Shown here: in pieces, positions 4,473 through 64,000 of the stretch
Numbering within the stretch: the first letter of the stretch is position 1
Layout of the letters: each line of letters opens with the position of its first letter
Origin: a virus
DNA: 64,000 bases
Virus record (IMG/VR): IMGVR_UViG_3300034072_002191
Coordinates: 1-64,000 of that record
Strand: one strand, 5' to 3'
Translations under genes and position numbers: made by a program
The notes under the pieces: generated by a model
The model's input: the letters and a program-made list of their open reading frames with translations, nothing else
Databases searched by the model: none
What the model was told of the DNA's origin: nothing

Positions 4473-4726
4473 GCTTTGTTCCCTACCATGCCGCGCGACG
4501 CCTTCCACTCTTCGAAGGCCCGCGCGTGCTTGGCGCAGAGATCTTTGCCCGGCTGGGGCGATGTGGAGCAGCGCTCGCAGATCGGCGCGTCGCAGGTGCC
4601 GCTGCGTTTGTTCGGGACCTTCCAGTCGCAGAGCAGCGGAGCGCGGCGGCCGCATTTGCACCGGCGCGTCTGAGTGCAGACGATCGCCGAGCCGCCGCCA
4701 GGCATCGTGACGTGCTGGCAGGTCAT
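4469..4726 (-). CDS. Cys-rich putative zinc-binding phage protein
   Basis: CKCG...LLCDW...CDAPICERC...DLCAKH. Confidence 0.7.
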   Translation of the reverse strand: MTCQHVTMPGGGSAIVCTQTRRCKCGRRAPLLCDWKVPNKRSGTCDAPICERCSTSPQPGKDLCAKHARAFEEWKASRGMVGNKA

Positions 4727-4864
4727 GTCAGCATCCTCAGCATTGAAATCGCCGCAGAAGGTCGGGGTGCGGGTGTAGCGGTGGTGCATCGGACGGCCCT
4801 TTCGATGAGGGCCTCCCATTTACACCAGCCGCGAACGCTCTGGGATTTGCGGGTTTCAGCTGCC

Positions 4865-7495
4865 TCATGCCGCCACCTGCTCGGGCTCGACCGTCGCTGC
4901 TTCGGCCGGGAACTGCGCTCGCACCAGCGCCGCGGCGATCGGCGGGCAGACGCTGTTGCCGCACTTGGCGACCTGGGCCGTCTTGGTGATCGGCCGCCCA
5001 TCGGCGTCGCGGTCGATGATGTACTCGTGCCGAACTTCAAGCTCGACGGATAAACTGCCCGTCGACGTTCGCGAGAGAGTGGACGAAGCGATGGCATCGA
5101 CCACAAAGCAGGACAAGGTTTGCAAGGTCGAGACGCAGTTCTGGGAACGCGGTCCATCCTGCGATGTGGTGGACTTCGAAACCCCGATCTCGGTAACGGT
5201 GACGCTCTCCGCAACGACGGCAGGTTGCGTCGTCTCGCCGCCAAATAGCGAGACAGGCCTGCCCCCACTCGGCGCTGGAGTGAAAGCGCTGGCGCTCGGT
5301 CGTGCGAAACGGATCGGTTCGATTGCGCTGGCGAAGAAGTCTGGCGCAAGCGTTTGAGCAGCAGACGCGATCCCGGTAGGCAGGGGAACGGAGACGATCG
5401 GTTCCACAGACTGGACATCGCTGGACGATCTTCCGGGACTGCGAAGCTGAAGAACCTGAAGCCCTAAGTCGATCAGCGCATGCACGGCTGCACGTTCGCT
5501 TTGGCCGTCGGGTTGCGACCCGCTCGAATTTGACCCCGCAGACGTCGCACGGGTGGTGCTCTCGGGCGCAGGTTCTTGGTCGTCCACCGCTCGGATTGTG
5601 GGGCCGTGCCATGTCTCCACCTTAAAGGAACGTTTCCAGAACGGGAAGCCCTGGGCGGAGAACAGCTCGCGCGGGGTAAGCATCCGCATGCCAATGTCGA
5701 CGATGGCGTATTCCTCACCGCCGATCGTCACCGTCACCACGCCATAGCGATCCTTGGTGGTGACCGTATGGAGGGGCTCGCCGAGCTGCGGATCCTGGTC
5801 GGTGCCGTAGTACTTCAGCAGGAAGGCCCGCACCTCCGCCATGTGCGTGCCGCTGGCGCAGATCGTATGCAGCGGCTCGTCCGCGCCAACGCCGCACGAT
5901 TCGAAGTGGCTGTCCTCTCCGCCGCGCAGCTTCACCAGGTTGGAGGTGACGATGCGCTGCTGGCTACCGGAGGCGGTGGCTGTCGAAAGCGGCTGGTCGG
6001 CCGCCCGCCCGGCGAGGCGATCGTTGTTCGGCCCGCCGTTCGCCTGCTCCAGGTGCGCCACAACCACAGAATGTTTCGCGTTACCCTCGATCGTCTGGAT
6101 CGGCTCGCTGGGTTCGGTCGGCGCGTTGCCGGTGGCGAACTTCTGCAGCAGTGCGGCCACGGCGTGATGCTTGATCCCGCCAGCGACGACGGTCCCCAGC
6201 GGCTTCTCGACGTCCATCGCGCGCGGCGCCTGACCCTCGCGCTCGCCGTTCCCAACGTGCACCAGATGAGCGGCGACGGCGGCAAACTCGTTGCTCGCTG
6301 GCTGGGTGCCCAGCGGCTCGTTGGCTGAGTGCGTGCGGTCCCTACCATCATCGCCGTGGGCAACGCGGACCAGATGCGCCGCGCAGATCGTGTTGTGGTC
6401 CCCATCGGAAGCGGTGACGGTGTGGAGCGGATCCTCCATCGATCGGCTCCCGCCGCCTTGCTGGGCATAGCTGGCGAACGGCGCGAGCGCTGCTTCAACC
6501 ACCCCCAGCGGCGCGGCACCCCCCGGGCGCTTCACGAAGCTGTTCGCCGTCACCGTGTGCAGCGGCTCGCCGACATCGTGCCCGACCTGCCCGGTGCGGA
6601 ACTTGGTGATGTGCGGCACGACGACGGCATGCTCGCCGCGGTTCGCGCCGGTGACGGTTGCCATGGGCTGATCGACCCCCGCGCCGCGCGCGCCGGGCTG
6701 GCGATGGGTCAGCGGGACGATGAACGGCGCCGGGTTGTTGACGACGAACTTCATGATCCCGTGCGCGATGCGCCGCAGGGTCTTCTCAGCCAGCGGCTTC
6801 TTCCGATCGAAGATAGACGGGCAGGGGATCGACCAGTCGATGATGTCCGCTGCGGTACGCCAGGGCTGCCGCTTGCCGCTCAGCACCTCGGGCGAGCCGG
6901 GCTTGCCGTGCGTCGGCTCCGGCCAGGCGATCGGCAGCCCGTCGCGGCGCGCGATCATGAAGAATCGCTTCCGGATCGTCGGCGCGCCATAGTCGCAGGC
7001 GCGCAGCTCGCGGAACTGCAGCTTGTATCCCGCCCGGCGTAGCGATCTGCACCACTTCTCGAACGTCTCGCCAGCGCGCTCCTTGATCGGCTTCCCCTCG
7101 TCGTCGAGCGGCCCCCAGGTCCGGAACTCTTCGACGTTCTCCAGCAGGATCACGTCCGGCGCGACACGCTCCGCCCACAGCACCACCACCCAGGCGAGAT
7201 CCCGGATCGACTTCTCCCGCGGCTTGCCGCCCTTCGCCTTGCTGAAATGCTTACAGTCGGGCGAGAACCACGCGAGCTGGACATGCCGCCCGTGCACGAC
7301 GTCGCGCGGGTCGACCTGCCAGATATTGTTGCGAATGTGGTGCGTGCCCGGGTGGTTCACCTCGTGCATGCGGATCGCTTCCTCGTCGTGATTGATGGCG
7401 ATGTCGACGGCCCGGCCGAGCGCGGCCTCGATGCCGGTCGAGGCGCCGCCGCCGCCGGCGAAGTTGTCAACGATAAGGGGGAGGTGGGTACCCAC
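4865..7495 (-). CDS. Orphan C5-cytosine DNA methyltransferase with an in-frame insertion
   Basis: Motif I FAGGGG, IV SPDC, VI LENV, VIII TIRKRFF, IX RELFSAQGFP, X CGNSV. Confidence 0.95.
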   Translation of the reverse strand: MGTHLPLIVDNFAGGGGASTGIEAALGRAVDIAINHDEEAIRMHEVNHPGTHHIRNNIWQVDPRDVVHGRHVQLAWFSPDCKHFSKAKGGKPREKSIRDLAWVVVLWAERVAPDVILLENVEEFRTWGPLDDEGKPIKERAGETFEKWCRSLRRAGYKLQFRELRACDYGAPTIRKRFFMIARRDGLPIAWPEPTHGKPGSPEVLSGKRQPWRTAADIIDWSIPCPSIFDRKKPLAEKTLRRIAHGIMKFVVNNPAPFIVPLTHRQPGARGAGVDQPMATVTGANRGEHAVVVPHITKFRTGQVGHDVGEPLHTVTANSFVKRPGGAAPLGVVEAALAPFASYAQQGGGSRSMEDPLHTVTASDGDHNTICAAHLVRVAHGDDGRDRTHSANEPLGTQPASNEFAAVAAHLVHVGNGEREGQAPRAMDVEKPLGTVVAGGIKHHAVAALLQKFATGNAPTEPSEPIQTIEGNAKHSVVVAHLEQANGGPNNDRLAGRAADQPLSTATASGSQQRIVTSNLVKLRGGEDSHFESCGVGADEPLHTICASGTHMAEVRAFLLKYYGTDQDPQLGEPLHTVTTKDRYGVVTVTIGGEEYAIVDIGMRMLTPRELFSAQGFPFWKRSFKVETWHGPTIRAVDDQEPAPESTTRATSAGSNSSGSQPDGQSERAAVHALIDLGLQVLQLRSPGRSSSDVQSVEPIVSVPLPTGIASAAQTLAPDFFASAIEPIRFARPSASAFTPAPSGGRPVSLFGGETTQPAVVAESVTVTEIGVSKSTTSQDGPRSQNCVSTLQTLSCFVVDAIASSTLSRTSTGSLSVELEVRHEYIIDRDADGRPITKTAQVAKCGNSVCPPIAAALVRAQFPAEAATVEPEQVAA
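5030..5641 (-). mobile_element. Putative homing element inserted in-frame in the MTase gene (about 612 bp; boundaries +/- a few codons)
   Basis: Separates GFP from HEYIID; contains a complete HNH ORF in another frame. Confidence 0.8.
5037..5612 (-). CDS. HNH endonuclease with Cys-rich zinc motifs, nested in an alternative frame of the MTase
   Basis: CRRCG...EVHHI...NLVLLCGRCH; CSRAC and CSNAC repeats; RBS AAGGTGGAG before the ATG. Confidence 0.9.
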   Translation of the reverse strand: MARPHNPSGGRPRTCAREHHPCDVCGVKFERVATRRPKRTCSRACADRLRASGSSASQSRKIVQRCPVCGTDRLRSPAYRDRVCCSNACARLLRQRNRTDPFRTTERQRFHSSAEWGQACLAIWRRDDATCRRCGERHRYRDRGFEVHHIAGWTAFPELRLDLANLVLLCGRCHRFVHSLANVDGQFIRRA

Positions 7496-7523
7496 GCGGG
7501 TCTCCTACGAATGGGGTGGTGGG

Positions 7524-7703
7524 TTAGCGCGGACGGCCATCACGGCAGGGCGCGCACCAGCCGCGCACGAGGCGCGGACTGTCGTCGCCGCAATTCTCGC
7601 ACTCGCCCGGCACGCCAACCGGAATCGGCTGCCGTGCCGCGCGCAGGCTGCGCTCAAGGTGCTACTCGTTAAGCTCGTTCGCCTGGTCGATCGTATCGGC
7701 CAT
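7524..7703 (-). pseudogene. TraR/DksA C4 zinc-finger gene with an internal TAG
   Basis: MADTIDQANELNE*HLERSLRAARQPIPVGVPGECENCG...WCAPCRDG; stop at 7662-7664. Confidence 0.75.
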
Positions 7704-7915
7704 CAGCGGTTCTCCGGGAATGGTAGGGTGCTCCGGCCGGCCTCCGCGGCCGGAGCGAGGGTGCGCGCTTGTGCGCTGCTTGCGACCTCGAGGGGGTGTG
7801 CGGAGGCCACCTCGGGGGAATGGGGCTGGTACGCCGCGAGGACGCACCGAAAAAGCATGCTGGCGAGCAGCAGAGCGCCTAGCCCTAAGACGCTGCCGGA
7901 AAACGAAATCCGCAT
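7703..7915 (-). CDS. Hypothetical protein with an N-terminal hydrophobic segment
   Basis: TGATG coupling at both ends. Confidence 0.5.
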   Translation of the reverse strand: MRISFSGSVLGLGALLLASMLFRCVLAAYQPHSPEVASAHPLEVASSAQARTLAPAAEAGRSTLPFPENR

Positions 7916-63496: not shown

Positions 63497-64000
63497 TGGT
63501 GACGGTCCGCGGGCGTGACTACCTGCAGCGCTACATGGGCAAGCTGCCCCAGGAGATCGAGGCAAAACTGCTGCGAGGCGCTGGCCGAACTGGTGGGAAG
63601 GTCGTTGCGGACGACGCGCGCGACCGCGCGCTGTCGGAGGAGGTCCGCGATAACATCGTCGTGAAGGTATCCAACCGGGATGGCCGGATCGTTGTCAGGA
63701 TCACTGTTCGCCAGGGTTGGAGCTATTCGCTTGGCGTCTGGCAGGAATGGGGCACCGAACCGCACTTCATCAAGGTCGCCGAGGATCAGCGTCAGGGACG
63801 CAGCATCGGACGCATCAACAAGCTGGTGAAAGAGGAGTCGCTCGTGATCAACGGGCAGTTCGTCGGCGATACCGTGCACCACCCCGGCGCCCGCGAGGCG
63901 CCATTCCTCCGCCCAGCGCTGGACCTGCGCAGCGGCGACGCGATCGCCGCGGCACAGGCCTACATCAACAGCCGGATCGTCGGCGGAAAGATCGTGGGCG
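63496..64000 (+). CDS. HK97 gp10-like tail completion protein (truncated by the window)
   Basis: EWGT...PFLRPALD. Confidence 0.85.
   Translation, partial: MVTVRGRDYLQRYMGKLPQEIEAKLLRGAGRTGGKVVADDARDRALSEEVRDNIVVKVSNRDGRIVVRITVRQGWSYSLGVWQEWGTEPHFIKVAEDQRQGRSIGRINKLVKEESLVINGQFVGDTVHHPGAREAPFLRPALDLRSGDAIAAAQAYINSRIVGGKIVG

Follow-up and report, generated by a model that had tools for sequence, protein, structure and literature searches.

An HNH endonuclease gene nested out of frame in a prophage C5 DNA methyltransferase gene: a putative mobile cassette that is probably read through rather than spliced out

How can a gene remain readable from end to end when a second, apparently selfish gene lies inside it in another frame? 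Mobile endonuclease genes are thought to persist in essential or useful genes by means of introns or inteins, and a methyltransferase (MTase) gene in IMG/VR record IMGVR_UViG_3300034072_002191 appears to follow neither route. The window analyzed here is the 64,000-nucleotide stretch from position 1 to position 64,000 of that record, an 80.7-kb provirus that contains a single copy each of the MTase gene and of the HNH endonuclease gene nested within it. A preliminary description of the window had proposed that the HNH gene is a homing endonuclease gene overprinted on an MTase frame that stays open across it. Our analysis confirms this observation and supports its interpretation: the locus is likely a mobile HNH homing-endonuclease cassette that sits unspliced in a prophage C5 MTase gene and is read through by dual coding. 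The two open reading frames (ORFs) and the shift between them are as first described, and the locus is composed of the following parts.

4865-7495, minus strand: read-through C5 DNA methyltransferase ORF, 876 aa including the insert (PF00145, 6.5e-23, Pfam)
5642-5686, minus strand: motif IX codons RMLTPRELFSAQGFP, the last of which, CCG (Pro), adjoins the insert (from the sequence and contig joints)
5030-5641, minus strand: insertion cassette, net 612 bp (204 codons), between motifs IX (QGFP) and X (GNSV) (from an empty-allele alignment and contigs that skip the cassette)
5613-5641, minus strand: 29-nt cassette leader with a Shine-Dalgarno (SD)-like AAGGTGGAG at 5615-5623, a -10-like TAAGGT at 5619-5624, and a TAA at 5622-5624 that closes the HNH frame (from the sequence and relatives)
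5037-5612, minus strand: HNH endonuclease ORF, 191 aa, 576 nt (PF01844, 2e-9, Pfam)
4865-5029, minus strand: MTase C-terminal segment past the insert, frame unchanged, in which motif X (GNSV) occupies 4949-4960 (the corresponding segment is conserved in every filled relative)

The long frame carries motifs I, IV (PC), VI (ENV), VIII, IX, and X in order and in a single frame, which places it among the C5 MTases, and alignments with homologues show motifs I (FAGGGG), IV (SPDC), VI (ENV), IX, and X to be intact. It runs from RMLTPRELFSAQGFP (motif IX) through 204 codons rich in Ser, Ala, Val, Thr, and Pro to HEYIIDRDADGRPITKTAQVAKCGNSV (motif X), and the protein accordingly reads ...RELFSAQGFP, the 204 residues, and HEYIIDRDADG...CGNSV. 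Deletion of 5030-5641 in silico restores the junction of motifs IX and X, as had been proposed, giving GFP-HE-YIID where insert-free homologues have GFP-x-D-YIID. The empty alleles that this proposal calls for do exist. Among the 120 best MTase homologues, 119 are without the insert; they align over only approximately 70% of the query, have GFP-x-D-YIID at the junction, and include P0001, the closest, at 91% identity. Only P0027 (66% identical) has a homologous insert, and in the same position. In nucleotides, the empty alleles show CAG GGC TTC CCG NNN GAT TAC (...CAGGGCTTCCCG-NNN-GAT-TAC...), and the window reads CCG|TTC TGG ... CGG CAC GAG|TAC at the edges of the insert. Contigs from three other sequencing runs (X2, X5, and X6) bridge the empty site with joints at 5641, 5642, or 5643, and their letters translate to GFP-S-D-Y-I-I-D-R-D-A and GFP-G-D-Y-V. 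The filled allele is present in the source run with zero differences. Because the contigs of all three runs join at 5641-5643, the 5' edge of the insert is exact (5641|5642) and the 3' edge can be placed only to within approximately 6-9 nt. These boundaries were set with the DNA of empty alleles more distant than P0001 and with the contigs.

The HNH ORF lies one base out of the MTase frame, such that the first position of an HNH codon is the third of an MTase codon and the third position is the second. It nearly fills the insert, as first noted, leaving 29 + 7 nt (36 nt) outside. The encoded protein has two N-terminal CxxC...CSxxC zinc ribbons followed by a C-terminal HNH core of the form CxxC...HH...N...CxxH...H, in which the family-invariant residues C131, C134, H148, H149, N165, C170, C173, H174, and H178 are all present; homologues at 26-60% identity share the invariant Cys, His, and Asn residues. 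The AlphaFold2 model has a mean predicted local distance difference test (pLDDT) score of 87.9, and its best matches in the PDB are all HNH nucleases, led by 5H0M, the HNH protein of phage GVE2. Nucleotide differences between relatives concentrate at the third HNH codon position, with 45, 35, and 91 at positions 1, 2, and 3 between the window and locus L001, and 15, 20, and 46 between L004 and L006. The evidence points to protein-level selection on the HNH frame. Because the substitutions pile up where the third HNH position is the second MTase position, the read-through peptide shows no conservation at the protein level, and when that peptide was used as a search query, only two proteins were matched. 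Two other features that had been entertained for these frames were discarded. An MTase-HNH fusion made by programmed frameshifting fails because a TAA stops the HNH frame four codons 5' of its ATG. A conserved Cys motif (VCSDRQK) that relatives show in the MTase frame, and that might have formed a "zinc clasp," simply reflects the conserved start of the HNH protein (MLRPSK) encoded in the overlapping frame.

In approximately 90 related nested loci, which come from several phyla, the MTase frame has no stop over the HNH (26 viral or genomic loci and 64 of 65 metagenome loci). In every one of them, the host is a C5 MTase and the site is the same, flanked by (Q)GFP(D/E) on one side and by x(Y/W/F)...GN(S/A)(V/M) on the other. 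Hosts of the lineage include Vannielia, Sphingomonas, Massilia, and metagenome-assembled genomes of Actinomycetota and Clostridia. The inserts are less diverged than the MTases that house them, and their divergence is uncoupled from that of the MTases (r=0.34): loci with HNH identities of 40-68% have MTase N-domains that share less than 30% identity or give no BLASTP match. For example, L015 and L017 share 68% identity in the HNH and 29% in the MTase N-domain, and the window and L004 share 53% in the HNH with no MTase match. Because similarity among the HNHs greatly exceeds that among their host MTases, and because the nearest MTase relatives are empty, these comparisons indicate lateral spread of the cassette between divergent genes at a conserved junction. 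Searches of cultured phages by tblastn with this HNH and with that of an Actinomycetota relative returned no close nested relatives.

These observations allow us to propose how the element persists. The cassette would consist of approximately 0.6 kb, comprising the 29-nt leader, the 576-nt ORF, and a few trailing bases, placed within the motif IX codons (QGFP|xDY). With a length that is a multiple of three and no stop in the MTase frame, it would be read through by the ribosome and would need no removal, leaving the MTase with a mostly unstructured loop of 204 residues that separates motif IX from motif X and lies beside the motif X helix. The HNH would be made separately from its own start codon at 5612, most likely by way of the SD-like AAGGTGGAG in the window; in most relatives, an internal promoter resembling TATAAT may instead give rise to a leaderless transcript. 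Insert-free alleles would presumably be cut by the nuclease where motifs IX and X adjoin, a conserved junction, and repair by recombination would then copy the cassette into the cut allele. Homing is indirectly favored by the empty alleles, the conserved site, and the signature of lateral transfer. From the sequences we infer that the HNH cleaves this junction and homes, that both proteins are translated, and that the MTase is active despite its loop.

The association with C5 MTases is strict, and across approximately 90 loci with HNH identity down to 35%, it is also old. The nuclease could therefore be a working partner of the MTase, whether restriction-like, methylation-aware, or engaged in Vsr-like repair, and nested for joint inheritance and expression. 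Among the structural neighbors of the HNH model are McrA and the Cap5 nucleases of cyclic-oligonucleotide-based antiphage signaling systems (CBASS), and free-standing HNH genes lie directly upstream of MTase genes in Dante, ShiLan, and EleanorGeorge. In Escherichia coli, the vsr gene overlaps the 3' end of dcm. However, the distribution of the insert is patchy, with the nearest MTase relatives lacking it, and the uncoupled divergence of HNH and host argues against a partnership. The position is always one conserved-motif junction, as expected of a homing target, and in no relative seen does the HNH occur as a neighboring partner gene of the same MTase family. A partnership is thus unlikely.

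The insert could also be removed by an unrecognized intron, an atypical intein, or translational bypassing, in which case the open frame would be incidental or needed only until removal. Phage T4 provides a precedent, in that a homing cassette there travels with a ribosomal bypass element. Nothing in the locus speaks positively for removal, although sequence alone leaves room for novel splicing elements. The locus gave no Rfam match at E<=1, and the 36 nt outside the HNH ORF leave no room for an intron. Pfam finds no Hint domain in the MTase frame, and the insert starts with FWKR and ends with VRHE, whereas an intein would need C/S/T...HN followed by C/S/T. The residues Phe...VRHE can be compared with the canonical C...VHN|C boundaries of an intein in the relative L002. 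Moreover, if the insert were spliced out, approximately 90 lineages would have no reason to avoid stops. Removal is therefore very unlikely, and the original claim of no intein and no evident intron stands. The L002 intein is an observation in its own right: at L002:2150-3212, and also in L003 and L026, an MTase with a hidden HNH is interrupted by a canonical intein, which lies at the motif IV catalytic Cys (FSPD[CFPAGT...IIVHN]CTYHSKARGG), such that one gene harbors two selfish elements with two survival strategies, as does ShiLan gp65. Compared with classical homing genes in group I introns and inteins (I-HmuI, I-TevI, and the L002 intein), the proposed read-through cassette likewise occupies a conserved motif of a conserved gene, has a filled allele that is presumed immune, and spreads laterally. 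It differs in having no ribozyme or protein-splicing domain, the host gene being saved instead by dual coding and by tolerance of the insert. Rickettsia palindromic elements are another case of selfish DNA kept in an ORF as an extra, tolerated peptide; they differ in being short repeats derived from noncoding DNA, with no nuclease gene of their own in another frame.

A cassette that is read through requires an MTase frame without stops. Over the HNH, this frame has 0 stops, as compared to 5.2 expected per 192 codons in the equivalent frame of 20 genes of the same provirus with high GC content at third codon positions, and windows of the same length in the equivalent frame of the 20 provirus genes are open in only 5 of 699 cases (0.7%). 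The codon usage of the HNH ORF departs from that of the MTase by avoiding NTG and NTA codons, in agreement with the use of CTT in place of CTG that had been noted earlier. For Leu, the HNH uses CTT in 6 of 12 codons and CTG in 2 of 12, and for Val it uses GTC in 10 of 10, whereas the MTase uses CTG for 26 of 40 Leu codons and GTG for 23 of 56 Val codons.

Several observations weigh against the proposed reading. When the HNH protein is held fixed and its synonymous codons are redrawn at host usage, the window copy remains open in 46% of draws (P(open)=0.46), which means that much of the stop avoidance is built into the HNH amino acid sequence. The codon-level signal is weak, and this single copy is not decisive. 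A within-gene synonymous shuffle is a weak null, as the codon pool of the gene is already depleted in NTR codons, and it was replaced by host-usage resampling and the genome baseline. It is also conceivable that the open frame is maintained for some purpose unrelated to the MTase. Finally, the read-through product is not predicted to be uniformly disordered. In an AlphaFold2 model of the full-length MTase, pLDDT is below 50 over most of read-through residues 619-824, in keeping with the disordered loop that had been suggested. However, strands at the two ends (620-628 and 815-823) and a helix (785-804) reach 70-87, as do further portions within residues 667-720 and 781-824, including strands at 669-676, 681-685, and 700-704. 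The alignment used for this model included only four insert-bearing sequences, and the structured parts may be an artefact of that four-sequence alignment or may represent nascent structure; "inert loop" may be too simple a description.

The decisive support for a selected open frame is the family of related loci. In 26 of 26 nonidentical viral and genomic loci with a full-length HNH homologue (>=36% identity), the MTase frame runs through the HNH free of stops and extends over 370-1140 aa, and the third frame is broken in all 26. Per-locus values of P(open) upon synonymous redrawing at host usage range from 0.001 to 0.46. A second set, of 65 distinct metagenome loci, has the MTase frame open in 64 cases and the other frame in no case. 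Motif X is found in frame past the insert in 62 of these loci and in 26 of the 26 viral and genomic loci. In contrast, 46 of 49 more distant, free-standing HNH relatives are broken in the equivalent frame (3 of 49 are open). NTR codons make up 0.09-0.32 of the codons with T at the second position in the HNHs, as compared to 0.26-0.56 in the hosts. AT-rich relatives (GC 0.32-0.45) are open as well, where 2-5 stops would be expected. The frequent breakage in relatives that would speak against dual coding was thus not seen. These comparisons argue that the stop-free MTase frame is selected for, and because motif X is kept in frame downstream, the host MTase gene appears to be still under selection. 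That the MTase was simply inactivated by the insertion, with its frame open by chance in GC-rich DNA where stops are few, fits the P(open) of this one copy with its protein fixed, but is extremely unlikely given the rarity of open windows in the provirus, the openness of all relatives including the AT-rich ones, the retention of motif X and of all catalytic motifs, and the absence, among the relatives found, of inserts that gather stops or frameshifts at a neutral rate.

Expression of the nested gene was addressed by comparing the leaders of related cassettes. In the window, the SD-like AAGGTGGAG that had been noted ahead of the HNH start is present at 5615-5623. Across the family, an ATG or GTG lies exactly 29 nt past the Pro codon in 54 of 64 unique related loci, and in these 54, positions -12 to -7 from the start codon are occupied by T42, A51, T26, A32, A39, and T54. 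The consensus is TATAAT at all six positions, with T at -7 in 54 of 54 and A at -11 in 51 of 54; 14 loci match this consensus exactly, and 6 have TACAAT. This box ends 6 nt 5' of the HNH start codon, often with a TGn ahead (e.g., in L017, L020, L013, and L088, of which L017 and L020 have an exact TGnTATAAT), and the host GFP codons (GGA TTC CCN) provide a -35-like TT(C/T)CCN at 17-nt spacing. The Arg codon at -11 to -9 is always AGG or AGA, even though hosts use these for 0-15% of Arg codons, which suggests that the signal is kept at the nucleotide level rather than in the protein. An alternating-hydrophobic beta-strand in the MTase frame could account for T at three positions (-13, -7, and -1) and leaves the remainder unexplained. 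Because the box lies 6 nt before the start, transcription would begin at approximately the A of the ATG and give a leaderless mRNA. It is possible, as a tentative proposal, that the cassette has a portable composite promoter, built from its own -10 box and a -35 element supplied by the host GFP codons, that fires a leaderless HNH mRNA inside the MTase gene. In window positions 4700-7800, where the hexamer is TAAGGT, no sigma-70 promoter-like or terminator-like site was called. If true, the composite promoter would explain how an out-of-frame gene is expressed without a Shine-Dalgarno sequence in hosts of several phyla. Leaderless initiation has only been speculated on for genes of the ShiLan type (PMC11855218), and such a promoter would answer the open question of that 2025 paper on hidden-gene expression.

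The closest precedent is the ShiLan domain, a hidden out-of-frame HNH in the DNA methylase gp65 of mycobacteriophage ShiLan (Gosselin et al. 2023, PMC9957025; Arsenault, Gosselin & Gogarten 2025, PMC11855218). It had been named in the preliminary description, and it is real. We used the ShiLan genome JN020143.1 for comparison. In both cases, an insertion of approximately 200 codons in a phage DNA methylase leaves the host frame free of stops, and a nuclease of approximately 195 aa with zinc ribbons, encoded in another frame of the same strand, nearly fills the insert. Both show no signs of an intron or intein, a patchy distribution, and inserts more alike than their hosts, and in both the methylase gene can house an intein as well (ShiLan gp65 and L002). 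The window locus thus has every mark of this kind of element: it is absent from close homologues, its host frame is open, its HNH ORF fills the insert, it has no intron or intein signature, and its divergence is uncoupled from that of its host. However, it belongs to other Pfam families. The ShiLan host is an N6_N4 MTase (PF01555), whereas the host here is a C5 MTase (PF00145); the ShiLan nuclease is of the HNH_3 type (PF13392), with a central core flanked by ribbons, whereas the nuclease here is of the PF01844 type with two N-terminal ribbons. BLASTP between the two HNHs matches a zinc-ribbon stretch only (E=0.004), and tblastn with this HNH gave no mycobacteriophage match. The lineage described here further differs in being found in assemblies of Proteobacteria, Actinomycetota, and Clostridia and in having a conserved -10-like box. 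The novelty that had been anticipated in host group and insertion site therefore holds. The cassette appears to work like the ShiLan domain while lying outside its sequence family, with another host superfamily, nuclease subfamily, site, and host range, and we take it to represent a new, large lineage of this recently published kind of hidden HNH. An out-of-frame, nuclease-like ORF has also been described inside a read-through methylase, Pacc40 gp60, with an HNH assignment called less certain (PMC11855218). That case is likewise nested in a methylase that is read through, and the published description sets it apart by another methylase family and another site.

These comparisons strongly support a third route by which a mobile endonuclease gene may persist in a useful gene, which is to stay in, with a length that is a multiple of three, and to avoid stops in the host frame. 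The hidden-HNH route would then be no mycobacteriophage oddity, as it is used by an old and widespread lineage aimed at a single C5 MTase junction. The approximately 90 dual-coding sequences would form a natural set for studying the mutual constraint of overlapping frames, and the permissive insertion site in C5 MTases may serve engineering. Gene callers annotate such loci as a single long "methyltransferase" and overlook the nuclease. Nuclease activity, homing, and MTase function are what we infer from these sequences.

Several smaller observations concern HNH genes and methylases elsewhere. A distant HNH relative, matching in the C-terminal domain only, is nested in an open 674-aa N6_N4 MTase frame (PF01555, 7.7e-35) at L033:3420-5441, an instance of the nesting trick in another methylase family. 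In Escherichia phage BUCT618 (OM735461.1, 36950-37360), a 29%-identical HNH match lies under the annotation "site-specific DNA-methyltransferase" and may be a hidden nuclease. In Pseudomonas phage Lana (NC_048166.1, 59874-62924), a C5 MTase match to a 679-aa query falls in two pieces over 3,050 bp, which suggests an insertion of approximately 1 kb. In the mycobacteriophages Dante (L094:2126-2491), ShiLan (L177:871-1227), and EleanorGeorge (L095:698-1054), the small free-standing HNH gene directly upstream of a DNA methylase gene hints at a recurrent association of HNH and methylase genes beyond nesting.

Within the provirus, an integrase gene adjoins the MTase/HNH locus. The target-recognition region of the MTase (window positions 5700-6700, residues ~270-600) contains approximately seven (D/E)PL(H/G/S)T(V/I)TA repeats, for which AlphaFold2 gives a pLDDT below 50, and the number of these repeats differs among MTase homologues, which are 580-800 aa in length.

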